Below, one piece after another: positions 2,995 through 58,640 of a DNA stretch of 64,000 bases. The notes under the pieces were generated by a model. That model was not told the DNA's origin. It worked only from the letters and a program-made list of their open reading frames with translations, and made no database searches. The DNA comes from Gammaproteobacteria bacterium. GTDB taxonomy: Bacteria > Pseudomonadota > Gammaproteobacteria > UBA1113. A program made the translations under genes and the position numbers. The stretch lies in contig JAGVJK010000007.1 in assembly GCA_020051155.1 (NCBI GenBank), forward strand, positions 3,636-67,635. The letters run 5' to 3'. How positions within the stretch are numbered: the stretch's first letter is position 1; every line of letters begins with the position of its first letter.

Positions 2995-3161
2995 CAGGGG
3001 CTTTTATCCTTTTGTAATATTGGTAAATAAGGCCATAAAATTGAGTCATAGTTTACCGGAAATTATGTCTGATAACCATGGGGTGGGTTGAATTTGAGCA
3101 AATAAATCTTTTATATTGAAAATGAGAGGAAGTTAGAACATAAAGTTTTTGTTTTAACTGG

Positions 3162-3201
3162 CAAAGGCGTCCTATTTTTAGCTTTAGGACGCCTTTGTTT
3201 T
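3162..3201 (+). terminator. intrinsic-terminator-like hairpin whose T-tract is on the plus strand
   Basis: 12-bp perfect stem caaaggcgtcct (3162-3173) / aggacgcctttg (3186-3197), followed by ttttg. On the minus strand the hairpin is followed by ccagttaaaac, with no U-tract. Confidence 0.5.
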
Positions 3202-3208
3202 GCGGGGT

Positions 3209-4207
3209 TTAAGAAGAAGAGGATGAAGGTGAAGAAGATGATGATGGTGATGATGCTGGTGGTGGAGACAACGTGCGGTAGGGGCCAAGGAGCGATAAAC
3301 GTTCTGGTGTTATAGGATTTAGCTCTTTACATGTGTTTAAAAATTGTGATTGTGACGGATATATCTCAGGATTATCTCTTATGTGGTTTAATTTATTTTC
3401 ATTGATTTTAGTAGCTCCAGCCTGGAATAACATCTGAAAAATAGCTTGTTCATTGAAAAAAATAGCTAAATCTAGAAGACTAAATTCAGATAAATAGCTA
3501 AAGCAGATGGGAGAAGGAGATGTTGATTGTTCAATGCTATCGTTTTGAGGTGGAGTAGTCTTCTTTATTGGAGTTTCAATACCAAACTCTGTTTCTGTAT
3601 CTAAATTAACTTTTTTCTTCCCAGTGTATGCTAATAAATTTGCAACTAATTCGACCTTACCAAAGATAATTCCATATTCCAGCGGAGTTACCTTGCATGA
3701 AGGATTGCGTGCTACTTTTAGAAATCCATCGATGAATACTGGTTCCGCTTTTCTAAAAAAATGGTTTGAAAGCCCTTTTTCCGGGAAAAGCGCAAGATTG
3801 AGATGGCTATAGTTAAGAGAAAAAGACTTATTCCCGCGGTGCTCAATTAGCAAAAATGTAGTGTTTGCGGTAGGGTAGTGGTCTAACGCAATATCTAAGG
3901 GTTCTTGATTCTTGCTATTTTGTGCGTGGATATTAGCGCCAGCGAGGAGTAATTGTTTGACTAACTGGTATCTATGCGCATCATCAATGGTTTCAGTTAA
4001 AGCTTCATGTAAAGGGGTTTGGCCCCAGGCGTATTGATCAACGCATGCATCTGTGCGTTCCCCCCCGCAGGAGAACCAACCAAATTGTTGATGCACAAAA
4101 ATGCGATTTAAAAAAGGGTAACTTGCTCGAAAACCGTGCAATGCCATTTTAGCGTTAGCACGTGAAGTCTCGAGTGCTAAAATTTCTTGATCATCACTAG
4201 CTGCCAT
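3209..4207 (-). CDS. ankyrin-repeat protein with C-terminal Ser/Pro tail (candidate secreted effector)
   Basis: ORF track, 332 aa. Degenerate ANK repeats (TPLHEAL...LVKQLLLAGANIHAQN; VTPLEYGIIFGKVELVANLL; LLDLAIFFNEQAIFQMLFQAGA). C-terminus is SPPPASSPSSSSSPSSSSS. Visibly more AT-rich than its neighbours. Confidence 0.75.
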   Translation of the reverse strand: MAASDDQEILALETSRANAKMALHGFRASYPFLNRIFVHQQFGWFSCGGERTDACVDQYAWGQTPLHEALTETIDDAHRYQLVKQLLLAGANIHAQNSKNQEPLDIALDHYPTANTTFLLIEHRGNKSFSLNYSHLNLALFPEKGLSNHFFRKAEPVFIDGFLKVARNPSCKVTPLEYGIIFGKVELVANLLAYTGKKKVNLDTETEFGIETPIKKTTPPQNDSIEQSTSPSPICFSYLSEFSLLDLAIFFNEQAIFQMLFQAGATKINENKLNHIRDNPEIYPSQSQFLNTCKELNPITPERLSLLGPYRTLSPPPASSPSSSSSPSSSSS

Positions 4208-4622
4208 TCTTTATACCTCATTATCAGTCATTCAATTAATCCCAACAAAGATACAGAAAAAATCACACAGGTCAAGCATTTTTTGAGCACAGCTGTGCTA
4301 TTTCAGTCCTGATAATCAGCTCAAGCTCTTAAAAATGCCTTTTATTGGTCACTAAATAGATAAATTTTAAACGGAATCATAAATATGGCTTTTTTTTACC
4401 AAAATTGCGGTAGAATATGCCAGATTATAGGTGAATGATCCTGAGCATGGGCCTGAGAATGAAACAGCATCTTCTGAAACGATACCACTTAATTCTCAGG
4501 GCGACGAGGCAGGTTATGGAACGCTTCATCAAATGGAAGTTGATCTAGGAGGTGGATCTGCTGGCGTTGAACCTTATGAACGGATGTATCCACATCCACA
4601 AAATATGTAAATACAGCAATAT

Positions 4623-4653
4623 AGCGCCAAGAGATTTTCTTGGTGCTATTTTC
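4623..4653 (+). terminator. intrinsic-terminator-like hairpin
   Basis: Stem agcgccaaga (4623-4632) / tcttggtgct (4638-4647, one G-T pair), 5-nt loop, then attttc. Lies 13 nt after the stop of an unlisted 59-codon ORF (4431-4610). Confidence 0.4.
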
Positions 4654-4670
4654 AAGATCAGCGCGTGATA

Positions 4671-4980
4671 GATCTCAATGAAGGTGTCTGGCACATTGAT
4701 TTGGAAAAAAGAATCTAAATTTTCCACAATAATCAAAAAGAGAACCAGCGTAAAAGCATTCTCGTGTGCCTGACTCCGTCTGCATTGAGCGCTCGACGAA
4801 GAGCCTCCTAATCAACATCAATTCGAAATGTGCTCTATCAAAAAGAAACTGTTTTTTTGAGATCGGCATAAGCGGAGTCAGGCACACGAGAATGCTTTTA
4901 CGCTGGTTCTCTTTTTGATTTGTTAGGAGCAAGATGTGCCCGTTTTCCAAATCAATGTGCCAGACACCGCTGTTGAGATC
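4671..4980. mobile_element. MITE-like nested inverted-repeat element, family 1, copy 1 (310 bp, TA-flanked)
   Basis: Outer IR gatctcaatgaaggtgtctggcacattgatttggaaaa / ttttccaaatcaatgtgccagacacc...gagatc. Inner perfect ~48-bp IR aatcaaaaagagaaccagcgtaaaagcattctcgtgtgcctgactccg. TA dinucleotide on both flanks (4669-70, 4981-82). No ORF of its own. Confidence 0.8.
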
Positions 4981-4995
4981 TATGCGAAATAATTT

Positions 4996-5331
4996 TTACG
5001 GTTTATATCCGAGAAAAGGTAATTCGCGAGCGGGGCTATCAAAAAGTTGGTGGAGTAAAGTAAATAGTGCGCCACAGACTAATGCGCCTATGACCAATCC
5101 CCATTTGGCGGCTTCTGTGAGTACTAAAACAGCTGCGTCTGTTATAGGTTGCCATTGGCTGAGTGCAGTTTCTCTAAGAACTAGGGCTGTACTCATATTA
5201 CCGCTAGTAAGACTGTTAACTTGGGCATTATTGCCTTGCCATTGTTGATAAGCAGCGTTAAGAAATCCTATTTGCAAGGCATAGCATGCTACCGTGAATA
5301 CAGCATTTACAAAGGCATCACTTTGTCTCAT
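4996..5331 (-). CDS. hypothetical small membrane protein
   Basis: ORF track, 111 aa. gagga about 10 nt upstream of the ATG. Hydrophobic segments at both ends (FVNAVFTVACYALQIGFL; WGLVIGALVCGALFTLL). No recognisable family. The overlapping plus ORF 4934..5248 starts inside the MITE and is disfavoured. Confidence 0.4.
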   Translation of the reverse strand: MRQSDAFVNAVFTVACYALQIGFLNAAYQQWQGNNAQVNSLTSGNMSTALVLRETALSQWQPITDAAVLVLTEAAKWGLVIGALVCGALFTLLHQLFDSPARELPFLGYKP

Positions 5332-5538
5332 TTTATTTGAATCCTCAATGAATAATTTAATTTTTTTGATTTAATAAGAAGCAGGTTAAACTGCACGCAA
5401 GATTGTACAATATTTCCGCATAATAAACCAGTTCAATTTGGCTTATTGGCGCTACCTCCAAAAATCTAAATTGGGCTAGTTTTTTAATTTCAGAGAGGCA
5501 GCCACTTGGATATCGCGACAAATAATCGATAAATCTGT

Positions 5539-5597
5539 CGCGATTTGACAGATCGCGACAAATAAGCTATTAATTTGTCGCGATCTGTCAAATCGCG
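5539..5597. promoter_or_regulatory. 25-bp perfect inverted repeat (9-bp spacer), putative operator upstream of the Fic gene
   Basis: cgcgatttgacagatcgcgacaaat (5539-5563) is the exact reverse complement of atttgtcgcgatctgtcaaatcgcg (5573-5597). Part of a TCGCGA array (5513, 5538, 5553, 5578, variant at 5593, 5628). Confidence 0.6.
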
Positions 5598-5624
5598 CCA
5601 CATTTTTGGCGCAAGGGGGAAATA

Positions 5625-6995
5625 ATGTCGCGAAAGGTTGCTTCAAAAGAAATAGAACAAATTTTAGCCTTTTTGCAGCAATATCCTGAAGGGGCTTCGG
5701 CTGAAGTTATTTTGCAGGGATTGCCAAATGAAATATCCAAGCGTACTTTGCAGCGGCGATTAGCTAAGCTTATTGTAGAGCAACAGGTAGTGAGAGTGGG
5801 TGAGGGGGCAGCGAGTCATTATCAACTTGCTACAACACCCGTGAAAATAACATCTGCACACGCCTATGATTACATTCCATTATCTAGTCCGGCAGAATCG
5901 TTACGAGAGGCCATCCACCAACCATTATCATTGCGGCGCCCAGTAAGTTATGACCGTGCATTGCTTGATGCTTATGAGCCTAATGTCACTTATTATTTGC
6001 CGGTCTCACTGCGCCAGCGGTTGATGAATTGGGGACAAATTTCAAAAGAACAGCAGCCTGCCGGTACTTATGCGAAGAAAATTTTAGAACGATTATCGAT
6101 TGATTTATCCTGGAATTCCTCACGCTTAGAAGGTAATACATATTCTTTATTAGAAACAGCGCGATTGCTTGAGCAAGGCGAGGCGAGTACAGGGAAACAA
6201 CAATTTGAAGCACAAATGATTTTGAATCATAAAGCAGCGATAGATTTTATGATTTCTTCGGCAGAAGATATTGACTTTAATCGTTACACTATTTTGAACT
6301 TACACGCCCTATTGTCTGATAACTTATTGCCAAATCCCGCAGCTTGTGGGCGATTGCGTCAAATTCCAGTAGGCATCGCTGGAACAGTCTATTATCCATT
6401 AGAGATTCCGCAAGCGATTGAGGAGTTTTTTCAACAAATTTTGGATAAAGCAAAAGCTATCATTGATCCCTTCGAGCAAGCGTTTTTTGTCATGTTACAT
6501 ATTCCTTACTTGCAGCCTTTTGAAGATGTTAATAAACGAGTCTCGCGTTTAGCTGCTAATTTACCGTTGTTTCGAAAAAATTTATGTCCACTTTCTTTTA
6601 TCGATGTGCCAGAGCAAGCCTATATTGATGCTACTTTAGCGGTTTATGAGTTTCATCGATATGATCTTTTACGTGATGTGTTTGAGTGGGCTTATCAGCG
6701 ATCGGCTCTGCATTATGCAGCGCTCCAACAATCCTTGGGAGAGCCTGATCCGTTTAAATGGCGCTATCGAAAACAAATCGCTTTGCTGATGAAACAAATT
6801 GTTAGTTTGCAATTAAATAAAGAACAGGCGATTCAGTTGATTCAACAAGCAGCAAATTTAGAGGTGCCAGTTACCGATCATCAAAAATTTATTGAAATGG
6901 TGGATCGAGAAATCATGAGTCTGCATGAGGGTAATATTGCACGTTATCAAATACGGCGTGAGGAATATGCTGCCTGGCGTGCGTTGTGGGATTAA
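5625..6995 (+). CDS. HTH + Fic/Doc-fold protein with degenerate active-site motif (QPFEDVNKRVSR)
   Basis: ORF track, 456 aa. aggggga SD. N-terminal wHTH-like segment (ISKRTLQRRLAKLIVEQQVVRV). Intact alpha-inh-type motif SSRLEG (res 165-170). Fic-core motif region LHIPYLQPFEDVNKRVSRLAAN, where the canonical HxFx(D/E)GNGRxxR His is Gln (cag, 6513-6515). Confidence 0.75.
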   Translation: MSRKVASKEIEQILAFLQQYPEGASAEVILQGLPNEISKRTLQRRLAKLIVEQQVVRVGEGAASHYQLATTPVKITSAHAYDYIPLSSPAESLREAIHQPLSLRRPVSYDRALLDAYEPNVTYYLPVSLRQRLMNWGQISKEQQPAGTYAKKILERLSIDLSWNSSRLEGNTYSLLETARLLEQGEASTGKQQFEAQMILNHKAAIDFMISSAEDIDFNRYTILNLHALLSDNLLPNPAACGRLRQIPVGIAGTVYYPLEIPQAIEEFFQQILDKAKAIIDPFEQAFFVMLHIPYLQPFEDVNKRVSRLAANLPLFRKNLCPLSFIDVPEQAYIDATLAVYEFHRYDLLRDVFEWAYQRSALHYAALQQSLGEPDPFKWRYRKQIALLMKQIVSLQLNKEQAIQLIQQAANLEVPVTDHQKFIEMVDREIMSLHEGNIARYQIRREEYAAWRALWD

Positions 6996-7017
6996 TAAAG
7001 AAGCATCTTTCCTTTTC

Positions 7018-7032
7018 TGGCACAAATAATGC
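7018..7032 (+). promoter_or_regulatory. sigma-54-like -24/-12 element upstream of mlaF
   Basis: TGGCACaaataATGCT. GG (7019-20) and GC (7031-32) have the canonical GG-N10-GC spacing, and 4/5 match to TTGCW at -12. Sits 42 nt upstream of the SD-preceded GTG at 7074. Confidence 0.3.
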
Positions 7033-7073: not shown

Positions 7074-7910
7074 GTGATACAGCAACGAGAGGGGTTGGGT
7101 GATTTAATTCGAATTGATCATTTAACGTTCCAACGAAACCAGCAATGTATATTTGATGATATTAGTTTGACCATTCCCAAGGGTCAGATTACAGCAATTA
7201 TGGGCCCCAGTGGTACCGGTAAAACAACGCTATTGCAGTTGATCGGTGGGCGGTTAAAGCCCAACGCCGGCCACCTTTATTATGAGAATCAATGTATTGA
7301 TGGTATGTCGAATAAGCAATTGCTTCGCCTGCGCGAAAAAATGGGCATGCTGTTTCAAAATAGTGCTCTGTTTACGAATTTAACGGTTTATGACAATGTT
7401 GCGTTCCCCATGCGCGAGCATACGCAATTGCCAGAATCTTTTATTAAAGATTTAGTCTTGATGAAATTAGAAGCAGTGGGTTTGCGAGGCGCCCGCAACT
7501 TAATGCCGAGTCAATTATCTGGCGGTATGTCGCGTCGAGTTGCCCTAGCACGCGCCATGGCCTTAGATCCTGAATTGATCATGTATGATGAACCCTTTAC
7601 CGGCCAAGACCCCATTTCTATGGGGGTGTTGGTGAAACTCATTAAGCATTTAAATGATGCATTGGGTATGACCAGTATCATTGTTTCTCACGATGTGCCA
7701 GAAACTGCTAGTATTGCTGATTACATTTATATTTTGGCGCAGGGAAAAATTGTGGGACAGGGAACGCCTCAACAGTTAGCAGATTGTCAAGATCCTCACG
7801 TTTTACAATTCATGCATGGATTACCCGATGGTGTGGTGCCCTTTCATTATCCAGCACCGGATTATCGACAGGATCTTTTAGCATCCTGTAAAGAGAGGGA
7901 AGCATCATGA
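7074..7910 (+). CDS. mlaF: phospholipid ABC transporter ATP-binding protein MlaF
   Basis: ORF track 7029..7910. GTG at 7074 is preceded by agggggcagcagg and gives an MlaF-sized product. Walker [10 protein letters not shown], signature [14 protein letters not shown], Walker B IMYDEP. First gene of the mlaFEDCB order. Confidence 0.85.
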
Positions 7911-10370: not shown

Positions 10371-11645
<1,275 letters not shown>

Positions 11646-11661
11646 CCGAGAGAGGTCCGAT

Positions 11662-12420
11662 ATGGCACTGCGCAGCGAAATGGATCAATATTTAACGTCG
11701 ATCATGCAACCGCAAAACTATGTGGATTATTCACCGAATGGTTTGCAAGTGCAGGGGAAAGAAGAGGTTCACGTTTTGGTGTCAGGCGTTAGTGCTTGTC
11801 AAGCGTTGCTCGATCAAGCCATTGCCTGCCAAGCAGATGTGATTTTAGTGCATCATGGTTATTTTTGGCGAAGTGAACCAGTAGAAGTTACCGGGATCAA
11901 ATACCAGCGATTAAGCACCTTGTTAACCCACAATATTAATTTATTTGCGTATCACATTCCCTTAGATGCGAATACTATTTTTGGTAACAATGTGCAGTTG
12001 GCAAAACATTTGAAATTGCCGTTAATTGGTCCCTTGTCGTCTCACAAAGAAGATGCGTTAATTCTACATGGAGAATATAAAGAGCCTATTAGCTTAGAAG
12101 CTTTAGGTGCGTGTATTGAGACGGGATTGCAGCGTGCTCCTTTAATCATTGCCGGTGGTGATCATCCGATCAAACGAATCGCTTGGTGCACCGGTGCAGG
12201 GCAAGAATTTTTTGCAAAAGCGATTGATGCGGGCATGGATTGCTTTATTACTGGCGAAGTTTCAGAATATTGTGTTCATATGGCCCGTGAAGCAAAGGTA
12301 CATTTTATTTCAGCTGGGCATCATGCGACGGAGCGCTATGGCGTAAAAGCCTTAGGGGATCATTTAGCAGAAGCATTTGATATAAAGCATCAATTTATTG
12401 ATATTGACAGTCCAGTCTAG
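11662..12420 (+). CDS. Nif3-family dinuclear metal-centre protein (YbgI-like)
   Basis: ORF track 11533..12420 overlaps murA. Internal ATG at 11662 (MALRSEMDQYL...DYSPNGLQVQGKEEV...ILVHHGYFW) matches the YbgI N-terminus. Confidence 0.8.
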   Translation: MALRSEMDQYLTSIMQPQNYVDYSPNGLQVQGKEEVHVLVSGVSACQALLDQAIACQADVILVHHGYFWRSEPVEVTGIKYQRLSTLLTHNINLFAYHIPLDANTIFGNNVQLAKHLKLPLIGPLSSHKEDALILHGEYKEPISLEALGACIETGLQRAPLIIAGGDHPIKRIAWCTGAGQEFFAKAIDAGMDCFITGEVSEYCVHMAREAKVHFISAGHHATERYGVKALGDHLAEAFDIKHQFIDIDSPV

Positions 12421-12439
12421 TTAAAGGTGTTAGCCATTT

Positions 12440-13312
12440 ATGAAAGTTGTACAATCTGCAGGGCTTGATCGTCCCAAGCTAAGCGCTCTGCGAAAATTAA
12501 TGGCCATTTGTCAGAAAAAAGATGGTCGTAAAATTAGAATTTATTGGAATATTATTGGCAAAGAGCGTTATATTCCTGGGGATTATTGCGTTATTTCCGA
12601 TCGTAATTTAGTGGCATATTTAGGCGCGTTTATTTTTAATGATGGTGAAGCAGAAATTACCGCAGTGGTGAATCCTAAATATCGTCGTCACGGTGTTTTT
12701 AAAGAGTTATTAAAACGAGCCGCGACCATGGTGAAGCCCTTTGGTACGAATACCTTGGTATTGTGTTGCCCCTATAATTTTCCACCGTCGCAAGCATGCT
12801 TAAAAAAATATAACGCGACACACCGCCATACAGAATATGATATGCGCTGGAAAAATGAAACAGTACTCGATTTTTCGGAAAAACCAGATTTTCATACACG
12901 CCTTGCATCAATCGATGATTTAGAAGATATGGTGGCGGTGGACGCCGAGTGTTTTCATGCGTCACTGGAAAAAGTTAGGATCCATTTTTCTAATAATTTT
13001 AGAGAGAGCAATCGCGAAGCGTGGTTACTCTTTCACGATGACGAGTTTGTTGGAAAAATTCATTTTCGCTACGATGAAGATGCTGCATTTATTCATAACG
13101 TTTGTATTAAGCCAGAGTTTCAAGGCAGAGGTTATGGTTCTTACTTTTTAAAACGAGCGTTAAACTATTTAACCAACGGGGGCCACCGTTGCATCCGCTT
13201 GGATGTAGAAGCGGTCAACGAAGGCGCTTTATCTCTTTACCTACGCTTAGGTTTTGTTGCCACTCAAATTTACGAATTCTGGGAAATGCCCATCGAGAAT
13301 GCGCTGAAATAG
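12440..13312 (+). CDS. GNAT-family N-acetyltransferase (two-lobed)
   Basis: ORF track, 290 aa. C-terminal GNAT motif A (IKPEFQGRGYGSYFLKRAL). The N-terminal half also looks GNAT-like (VNPKYRRHGVFKELL). Confidence 0.65.
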   Translation: MKVVQSAGLDRPKLSALRKLMAICQKKDGRKIRIYWNIIGKERYIPGDYCVISDRNLVAYLGAFIFNDGEAEITAVVNPKYRRHGVFKELLKRAATMVKPFGTNTLVLCCPYNFPPSQACLKKYNATHRHTEYDMRWKNETVLDFSEKPDFHTRLASIDDLEDMVAVDAECFHASLEKVRIHFSNNFRESNREAWLLFHDDEFVGKIHFRYDEDAAFIHNVCIKPEFQGRGYGSYFLKRALNYLTNGGHRCIRLDVEAVNEGALSLYLRLGFVATQIYEFWEMPIENALK

Positions 13313-13314
13313 TA

Positions 13315-13626
13315 GAGCTGTATGAAGGTGTCTGGCACACTGATTTGGAAAACGGACGTACCTTTTTTCTAACAAATAAAAAAGAGAACTAGCGTTGAAG
13401 CATTCTCGTGTGCCTGACACCGCCCACGCCGATCTCAAATAAAACAGTTTCTTTTTGATGGAATATTTCGAATTAATATTGATTAACTAGGAGGCTCTTC
13501 GTCGAGCGCTCAGTGTAGGCGGTGTCAGGCACACGAGAATGCTTCAACGCTGGTTCTCTTTTTATTGCTGCGGAATATTAGAGTCTTTTTTTCCAAATCA
13601 ATGTGCCAGACACCTTCACACAGATC
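13315..13626. mobile_element. MITE-like nested inverted-repeat element, family 1, copy 2 (312 bp, TA-flanked, opposite orientation to copy 1)
   Basis: Same outer (..tgaaggtgtctggcacactgatttggaaaa) and inner (agagaac.agcgt.gaagcattctcgtgtgcctgacaccg) IRs as copy 1. The whole element is the reverse complement of copy 1. TA at 13313-14 and 13627-28. Begins 2 nt after the GNAT stop. Confidence 0.8.
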
Positions 13627-13729
13627 TAATGTTTTAAGATCCTTATCAAAATTTACGGGGGCTCTTTGTGTAGTCAGTCTACACGTTGCAACCCCCCCGT
13701 GCCTAGGCACAATCTTTGTTTCTGTTCCC

Positions 13730-58473: not shown

Positions 58474-58640
58474 CAGTGGTGTCTGGCACATTTGTATAGA
58501 AAACTGACGTATCTTGTTCCTAATAAATAAAAAAGAGAACCAGCGTAGAAGCATTCTCGTGTGCCTGACACCGCTCACGCCGATCTCAAATGGAGAACTC
58601 CTAGCTATAGGTGTGTCTGGCACCAGAGAATGCCTTAAAC
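58474..58640. repeat. truncated family-1 MITE (left terminus + left inner arm + degenerate right inner arm)
   Basis: ggtgtctggcacatttg...aaaaaagagaaccagcgtagaagcattctcgtgtgcctgacaccgctcacgccgatctcaaat, then ggtgtgtctggcaccagagaatgcc. Lacks most of the core and the right terminus. Confidence 0.7.

Follow-up and report, generated by a model that had tools for sequence, protein, structure and literature searches.

The gene at positions 5625–6995 (plus strand) of a 64,000-nucleotide stretch of DNA from a member of the Gammaproteobacteria (GTDB UBA1113; assembly GCA_020051155.1, contig JAGVJK010000007.1, positions 3,636 to 67,635), which we refer to as the window, encodes a Fic protein of 456 amino acids in which the catalytic histidine of the Fic motif is replaced by glutamine. 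Our best overall explanation, which we hold at a probability of about 0.6 and which draws mainly on comparison of sequences, is that the protein is a self-repressed and self-inhibited effector with an activity that would not depend on the histidine. Three elements of this picture, namely membership of a Gln-type family, fixation of the glutamine within that family and repression of the gene by its own product, are taken jointly highly probable. The interest of the gene lies with its family rather than with this copy, which in its genome is an unexceptional passenger gained by horizontal transfer. The clade comprises thousands of proteins, occurs in more than ten phyla as well as on plasmids, and has the glutamine fixed, yet it keeps the remaining features of the catalytic site, including the inhibitory glutamate, under stronger selection than any other part of the protein. 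Either outcome would extend the Fic fold, as a new His-independent chemistry or as the first purely binding Fic module, and since one gene and approximately 120 bp of DNA make up the whole system the family should be easy to study experimentally.

The Gln-type Fic motif and its clade

The frame at 5625–6995, whose coordinates include the stop codon, is a genuine open reading frame (ORF) of 456 codons. It stands in the list of ORFs, its product has full-length relatives of 455–480 residues at 50–58% identity, and residues 218–314 match the Pfam Fic model (PF02661) with an E value of 5e-11 and 43.6 bits against a cut-off of 24, which places the protein in the Fic/Fido superfamily. The altered Fic motif, QPFEDVNKRVSR, occupies residues 297–308 (6513–6548, plus strand) and departs from the canonical HxFx(D/E)GNGRxxR by exchange of His for Gln (Q297, codon cag at 6513–6515), of one Gly for Val and of the other for Lys, giving Asn-Lys-Arg, while Phe, Asp, Asn and both Arg residues are retained. 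The chain also carries, on the N-terminal side of the Fic core, an inhibitory motif of the form (S/T)xxxE(G/N), as in class II Fic proteins; this is SSRLEG at residues 165–170 (6117–6134, plus strand), with Glu169 as the inhibitory residue, and it was recognised both from the TVAIEG of FICD and from relatives. A flap with the pattern G-R-L-R...P lies at residues 242–258 (6348–6398, plus strand), where it aligns with 'aGRfRt..v' of FICD. In Fic enzymes the flap is the hairpin on which the target protein docks.

The sequence-only reading had reported the substituted motif and the intact inhibitory helix, and had named mis-registration of the motif as the error to look for. The codons, read directly, agree with it on both counts, and so do alignments with FICD. 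Both a phmmer search with the single sequence and a search with a 78-sequence profile against PDB chains (FICD 5jj6, 6i7j) set 'ylQPFeDvNkRvsR' on 'lvHPFtDgNgRtaR' and 'ssrlEGN' on 'tvaiEGN', and we rejected a shifted register with a canonical His elsewhere on the strength of this agreement.

The next question, which the same reading had raised, is whether the glutamine is conserved in a clade, and it is. A word-index search scored 8000 candidates, all of them significant, such that the relatives number at least 8000 clusters at 90% identity; an exhaustive search of representatives at 50% identity gave 4070 matches at E<1e-3, with 755 clusters at E<1e-30. The best 120 relatives are full-length proteins of 455–481 residues with 55–58% identity, and YLQxFEDVNKRVSR is present in 119 and WNSSRLEGN in all 120 of them. 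Among the best 150 representatives, which share no more than 50% identity with one another, the consensus is Q-[PAG]-F-x-D-[VGI]-N-K-R-x-[SA]-R, the first position being Gln, rarely Arg, Leu or Lys, and never His; no His was found at this position among the 270 sequences inspected. The codon for the glutamine in 67 related loci is CAG in 37 and CAA in 30, which indicates that the residue has been maintained through synonymous turnover.

Conservation was computed on 101 representatives, again at most 50% identical to one another. It peaks in two segments, the inhibitory helix (mean 0.77 for residues 161–180) and the Fic motif (0.75–0.79 for residues 281–320), as compared with 0.29–0.48 in the winged helix described below, with S165, E169 and G170 conserved in at least 94% and G242, R245 and P258 of the flap in at least 98% of the representatives. 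The near-invariant residues are S165, E169, G170, N201, H202, H227, G242, R245, E284, Q297, F299, N303 and R308, to which are added the Asp, Asn, Lys and two Arg residues of the motif. This pattern is the reverse of what a decaying active site would leave, and the glutamine is a character of the clade and not a lesion.

A clade of this kind has been described before. Khater & Mohanty (2015, Sci Rep 5:10804, PMC4454073) defined clade D2 from 45 bacterial sequences within the Doc subfamily, with the consensus Qx[F|Y]x[D|E][G|V]NKR, described it as 'usually single-domain' and argued that it may retain catalysis rather than being dead. The present gene is a further member, and its Gln is no peculiarity of this copy: its motif, QPFEDVNKR, conforms to the D2 consensus, having Gln in place of His and a Doc-like NKR. 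It differs from the published description in being a 456-residue protein that has a winged helix at its N-terminus, a class II inhibitory helix and a helical domain at its C-terminus instead of the usual single domain, and in being nearest in sequence and fold to class II Fic proteins of the FICD type and not to Doc; moreover, the clade is far larger than was reported, and the arrays of self-operators described below do not appear in that account.

The class II AMPylases/deAMPylases FICD/HYPE (PDB 4u04, 6i7g and 5jj6) are the best matches of the protein in both sequence (E 6e-12) and fold (E 7e-9), and share with it the (S/T)xxxE(G/N) helix N-terminal to the core, the flap and the register of the active-site loop. 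The likeness amounts to about 20% identity over some 250 residues. FICD carries HPFxDGNGRxxR with an essential His, where the window protein has Gln, Val and Lys in place of His, Gly and Gly, and FICD has tetratricopeptide repeats and no DNA-binding domain. A Foldseek search of the PDB placed FICD structures first with a probability of 1.00, followed by other class II Fic proteins (Mycobacterium marinum 7cb8, BT_2513 3cuc, 7xux, SoFic 3eqx and CbFic2 8cil), and no Doc structure was among the matches. We found no solved structure of the Gln-type clade in the PDB, where the best match by sequence is FICD (E 1e-12).

Doc of phage P1, in turn, has HxFxDANKR and is a kinase of EF-Tu (Castro-Roa et al. 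2013, cited in PMC4454073). Its Asn-Lys-Arg anion-binding loop, which in Doc is tied to an inverted ATP and to phosphoryl transfer, is the same as that of the window protein, although Doc keeps the His, is a small single-domain protein neutralised in trans by Phd, and lacks both the final Arg and the internal inhibitory helix that the window protein has. Membership of Doc itself was considered and rejected, there being no His, no partner of the Phd type, a multidomain chain of 456 residues and fold matches of the FICD kind.

The AlphaFold2 model (mean predicted local distance difference test score, pLDDT, 83.2; predicted template modelling score 0.65) gives a layout of winged helix, N-terminal extension, Fic core and C-terminal helical domain. 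Residues 3–68 form helix-helix-helix-strand-strand (helices 3–18, 26–32 and 39–51, strands 55–58 and 65–68; pLDDT 83–89), i.e. a winged helix, and the winged-helix-like N-terminus suspected from the letters is thus borne out. We place this winged helix-turn-helix (HTH) domain at residues 1–70 (5625–5834, plus strand) from the predicted secondary structure, from conservation, with R40, Q43, L49 and Y66 invariant across 78 relatives, and from covariation with the operator; none of the Pfam HTH models matched the protein. A disordered linker at residues 71–79 leads into the Fic core, and residues 347–456 (6663–6992, plus strand) make up the C-terminal domain, all-helical between 347 and 455 with pLDDT mostly 87–95. 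Outside the Fic core, and thus for the C-terminal domain also, no match to Pfam or the PDB was obtained in sequence or fold searches. The lowest confidence of the model falls on the inhibitory helix, the segment most conserved in the family, and this may reflect either a mobile element or the shallow alignment of 78 sequences from which the model was built.

An operator array at the gene's own promoter

Upstream of the gene the sequence-only reading had noted an elaborate palindrome as a possible operator, and this is real and far above chance. Repeat searching resolves it into five 12-nt sites of alternating orientation at a spacing of about 20 nt, arranged as two 40-nt tandem units (5512–5603): S1, ATCGCGACAAAT, at 5512–5523 (plus), S2 at 5533–5544 (minus), S3 at 5552–5563 (plus), S4 at 5573–5584 (minus) and S5, ATCGCGCCACAT, at 5592–5603 (plus). 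A further operator-like half site, TGTCGCGA, recognised as an exact match to the 8-mer TCGCGACA at 5626–5633 on the minus strand, overlaps the start codon (feature 5625–5634) and is the sixth of the series. All five exact TCGCGACA sites of the window fall within 5513–5633, beside which the array includes a sixth, variant copy. S5 is the commonest operator of the family and the other sites of the window are of a GCGACA flavour; the recognition helix of the window protein holds KRTLQRRL, and its wing, GEGAASHYQL, is unusual for the family.

The whole 1.82-Mb assembly holds 40 copies of the 8-mer against about 37 expected, yet two or more copies within 100 nt occur only at the Fic promoter, and the perfect operator 12-mer occurs nowhere else. 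A regulon, sought with both the 8-mer and the 12-mer, was rejected in favour of this single cluster at the gene's own promoter. Read by eye, a possible sigma-70 promoter lies inside the array (TTGACA at 5545–5550, a 17-nt spacer and TATTAA at 5568–5573; 5545–5573, plus strand). A consensus promoter scan listed nothing upstream of the gene, this hexamer escaping it because its final base is A. The Shine-Dalgarno-like AAGGGGGA (5613–5620, plus strand), read directly from the sequence, lies 4 nt 5' of the ATG. Rfam gave only sub-threshold matches to a 'miRNA precursor', which are due to the palindromes.

Arrays of this kind are a property of the family. Related loci were fetched from named genomes (80) and, in several more cases, from metagenomes, and nearly all have three to five copies of a word of about 10 nt, in alternating orientation, within 150 nt 5' of the start codon. 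Counting any one of three operator words, at least three copies precede the start within 150 nt in 56 of 67 distinct loci, as against 69 of 3475 background windows (2%) taken from the same loci. The operator type moreover follows the protein: a helix of the form ...RTLQYRL with a wing GRWxxY is paired with TTGCGC-type repeats in 17 of 18 loci, ...RMLQRRL with GCGAC-type repeats in 5 of 5 and ...RTLQRRL with GCGCCAC-type repeats in 28 of 32, these counts being of loci that lack phylogenetic independence. Such covariation is the pattern predicted by co-evolution of a repressor with its own operator, and from the comparison of loci autorepression appears well supported. The winged helix would accordingly bind five or six ATCGCGACAAAT-type sites over its own promoter and start codon and so keep expression low.

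The family also varies in how translation may begin. A TATAAT-like hexamer, resembling a -10 box, lies 4–10 nt before the ATG in 20 of 66 loci (for example at 5975–6003 of locus L001) and is often the 3' part of the last operator (…ATCGCGCCATAAT…). A Shine-Dalgarno-like sequence is present in none of these 20 loci and in 12 others, and the mRNAs of the 20, a good part of the family, may be leaderless; the window copy differs, with a leader of 21 nt that contains AAGGGGGA. In two metagenomic loci with unrelated neighbours (L001 and L002, 5790–6000 in each), about 200 nt of DNA upstream of the gene is conserved, past the operator array, and the mobile unit may extend this far.

In its regulatory logic the protein is closest, by analogy, to CccR of Yersinia pseudotuberculosis, which represses its own promoter via an inverted repeat (PMC9755527), and to CbFic2 of Coxiella burnetii, in which DNA binding modulates activity (PMC10628234). 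These proteins and SoFic likewise combine a class II Fic domain with a winged helix or HTH in one chain, and their structures (7xux, 8cil and 3eqx) are among the Foldseek matches. CccR and CbFic2 have a C-terminal HTH and a canonical His (H192 and H205) on which their AMPylation of FtsZ or histone H3 depends, whereas in the window protein the winged helix is N-terminal and Gln takes the place of His; CccR, in addition, recognises a single palindrome in place of an array of five to six sites.

A solitary, mobile module and its probable output

The relatives share the gene and its operators and nothing else that we could detect. When ORFs of at least 70 codons within 3 kb of the gene were clustered over 69 loci, no family extended beyond four of them, those being near-identical and syntenic, and clustering of ORFs of 30–120 codons within 500 nt of the same loci gave no conserved small ORF beyond such syntenic cases, the only widely shared short ORFs being shadow frames inside the Fic gene. 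Overall, neighbour families recurred in at most 4–6 loci, all closely related. A partner gene or small antitoxin, Phd-like or other, was ruled out on these grounds. Relatives at 50–57% identity occur in more than ten phyla (Alpha-, Beta-, Gamma- and Deltaproteobacteria, Verrucomicrobia, Chlorobiota, Bacteroidales, Planctomycetes, Myxococcota, Spirochaetales, Trueperaceae, Acidobacteria, Latescibacterota and others), and full-length copies lie on 23 plasmids, some of them adjoining IS21 or an integrase fragment. In the taxonomic family of the window's own genome the gene is patchy, with matches at E <= 1e-5 in 14 of 41 genomes; about ten of these are full-length relatives and the remainder, with E values of 1e-7 to 1e-18, are weak and concern the generic Fic core or short fragments, and the best match of the Fic protein overall (58%) belongs to a different family. 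Together these observations are those of a solitary, horizontally spread and self-contained module, as far as sequence comparison can tell.

Three further observations concern the surroundings of the relatives. In about nine genomes the contig ends 222–481 nt upstream of the gene start, and in two of these (L072 and L077), which come from one metagenome-assembled genome, both ends are at 372 nt; this suggests that repeated or multi-copy sequence beside the gene breaks assemblies. In five loci, which come from several Rhodobacterales genomes and from a chromosome that bears the label Candidatus Binatia, the gene and its flanks are near-identical, which reflects either recent transfer of the element or a problem of binning or labelling. 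Finally, a metagenomic contig (L092) encodes a second Fic-domain protein, of 497 residues, at 11486–12979, 2 kb downstream of the Gln-type gene, in a neighbourhood that also has a RES-Xre toxin-antitoxin pair and an HSDR_N fragment.

With regard to output, the only apparent DNA target of the protein is its own promoter and nothing else is conserved nearby, which implies that the output resides in the Fic and C-terminal parts and thereby favours an autorepressed, cis-inhibited effector. The protein is an intact Gln-type Fic (QxFxD[V/G]NKRxxR) with a class II, FICD-like fold and its own inhibitory Glu helix. Its Fic domain is not decayed, since the Asp, Asn, Lys, Arg and Arg that bind Mg and phosphate, the docking flap and the inhibitory Glu are all kept. 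This domain has most likely retained the ability to bind a nucleotide or phosphoryl donor, and would act on a docked protein, or on itself, with no His as general base. Two candidate mechanisms come from analogy: the Asn-Lys-Arg loop suggests an inverted donor of the Doc type, and Glu169 could act as it does in deAMPylation by FICD and CbFic2. The deAMPylation reaction of those enzymes also uses the His. To our knowledge every characterised Fic/Doc enzyme, whether AMPylase, UMPylase, phosphocholine transferase or Doc kinase, uses the His of the motif as its base. A functional Fic site, catalytic or ligand-binding, is on balance probable from its conservation. The stronger proposal, that Gln-type winged-helix Fic proteins are active enzymes with a chemistry unseen in the Fido superfamily and that they rank among the most widespread self-repressed, single-gene toxin or defence modules of bacteria, is tentative and rather unlikely to hold in full; such a chemistry could involve a donor bound in the inverted mode by Asn-Lys-Arg and, with no His as base, a transfer or hydrolysis onto an anionic acceptor or onto water activated by Glu169.

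The module would be of the toxin-antitoxin or defence kind and not a transcription factor with a regulon, a role to which we assign slightly less than even odds. The analogy is with class II Fic toxins that carry an antitoxin in cis and with toxic genes autoregulated through multiple operators, and on this logic an effector is favoured. Toxin-antitoxin, defence or transposase genes lie within 8 kb in 6 of 8 contexts annotated with Pfam (RES-Xre, HigB-HTH, AAA_15 with DUF4276, GmrSD_N, an HSDR_N fragment and transposases). Of the Fic-type defence models in PADLOC, the candidate single-gene anti-phage systems PDC-S04 (E 3e-15) and SoFic (E 8e-10) match the core, between residues 149 and 356; like the window gene they are single genes, and the gene itself occurs in accessory or defence-like neighbourhoods, the difference being that the match is limited to the generic core (residues ~150–350).

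The most serious competitor is a non-catalytic Fic fold that senses a nucleotide or other ligand and gates the fused winged-helix repressor, the protein then being a regulator and not an enzyme, and this is close to the first proposal of the sequence-only reading, a dead Fic repurposed for regulation. The DNA-binding half of that proposal has gained from the 56 of 67 loci and from the covariation, while the dead fold fits poorly with a family whose most conserved segments are its inhibitory helix and Fic motif. A sensor accounts well for the loss of the catalytic His throughout the clade and for the union of an N-terminal DNA-binding domain with a conserved operator array, the conserved phosphate-binding residues would suit a binding pocket equally, and DNA binding and the Fic domain are coupled in CbFic2 and CccR (PMC10628234, PMC9755527). 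It needs an output, however, and the sole array in the 1.82-Mb assembly is its own, no gene up- or downstream is conserved in the 69 loci, and the docking flap (G242 and R245) and inhibitory Glu, which are relevant to protein substrates, are near-invariant. Stand-alone Gln-type cores also exist: a prophage of Helicobacter bizzozeronii (BK070048; locus L090, 1390–2169) encodes a 260-residue protein with SSAQIEGN … QFFEDCNKRTAR, annotated as 'Huntingtin interacting protein E-like' and adjoining a portal gene, which has neither winged helix nor C-terminal domain, and this implies that the Fic part has a function of its own. We consider a sensor distinctly less probable than an effector, and an unconventional chemistry, which the sequence-only reading had offered as its alternative, the better reading of the two on the comparative evidence.

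Several points nevertheless weigh against an effector. Gln is unable to serve as a general base, which leaves room for a domain that only binds, and high conservation of the site is also expected of a ligand sensor. The assembly searched for operator words is 84% complete, and in this genome the Fic protein could secondarily control the mla operon that follows it. For defence and toxin-antitoxin neighbours the association is a qualitative, uncontrolled one over the 8 contexts, and the PADLOC matches cover just the generic Fic core. The AlphaFold2 pLDDT is only 48–63 in the region of the inhibitory helix (residues 150–190, nt 6072–6194). Searches of the literature for Gln-type Fic proteins and for the motif strings returned only the 2015 survey and no functional study.

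The insert between kdsD and mlaF

The Fic gene lies in an inserted islet of about 4 kb (2995–7028) between kdsD and mlaF. The genes lptB, lptA, lptC, kdsC and kdsD are upstream on the minus strand (1–2994, with kdsD at 2023–2994) and mlaFEDCB downstream on the plus strand. Of 12 relatives compared, five, with the closest (77% KdsD identity) among them, have kdsD and mlaF directly side by side in divergent orientation and separated by 150–860 nt, against 4035 nt in the window, and this comparison confirms the accessory islet of the sequence-only reading. It contains an ankyrin-repeat gene, a MITE-like (miniature inverted-repeat transposable element) repeat and the Fic gene. Its base composition (G+C content) is unremarkable, no transfer RNA gene was found near the Fic gene, and short ORFs in 4208–5624 have no Pfam match.

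The ankyrin-repeat gene (3209–4207, minus strand) matches Pfam Ank with an E value of 3e-6, and its product has a Ser/Pro-rich C-terminal tail (…SPPPASSPSSSSSPSSSSS) and weakly resembles AnkG and AnkY among the Dot/Icm effector models. A gene for a DotA/TraY protein of type IVB secretion is present in the genome (contig C34, 8661–10715; 298 bits, cut-off 100), which makes the ankyrin protein a reasonable effector candidate, as had been surmised. The Fic protein could by extension be a host-directed, Dot/Icm-like type IVB effector of a probably intracellular bacterium, acquired together with the ankyrin gene, since the two share one insert and Fic-domain effectors are known from intracellular bacteria, CbFic2 being an example (PMC10628234). 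We regard this as very improbable: full-length orthologues (50–58% identity) with winged helix and self-operator are found on plasmids and in free-living members of more than ten phyla, a bacterial autoregulatory operator has been kept, and the ankyrin gene, which is encoded on the other strand, is separated from the Fic gene by 1.4 kb that include the MITE-like repeat. The distribution of the relatives points to a generic bacterial mobile gene and not to a host-directed effector.

The MITE-like element is a palindrome of 316 nt (4668–4983) with nested inverted repeats, namely perfect arms of 48 nt (4731–4778 and 4873–4920) and arms of 41 nt (4668–4708 and 4943–4983). It contains no ORF with a Pfam match, and at least 20 copies of 70–86% identity are scattered over the assembly, two of the others lying in the window itself, near 13313–13628 and 58474–58590. 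That the Fic gene is itself decaying, a toxin remnant with His changed to Gln by a recent inactivating point mutation, might be suggested by CAG being one base from a His codon and by the non-coding debris and MITE-like element in the insert, and is barely credible given a full-length ORF with all 68 residues that are invariant in the 78-member alignment, a Gln fixed over hundreds of 50%-identity clusters with both CAA and CAG in use, and three perfect 12-nt operator copies retained.

At its downstream end the insert closely adjoins the mla operon. Only 33 nt separate the stop codon of the Fic gene (6993–6995) from the listed ATG of mlaF (7029), which has the same orientation, and this interval contains no terminator-like site. 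MlaF proteins of the relatives align only from about residue 25, and a GTG at 7074, preceded by AGGGGG, may be the true start, 78 nt after the Fic gene. The native mla promoter was apparently displaced by the insertion, and mlaFEDCB may be transcribed by read-through that starts either at the self-repressed Fic promoter or at one within the 3' end of the Fic gene.

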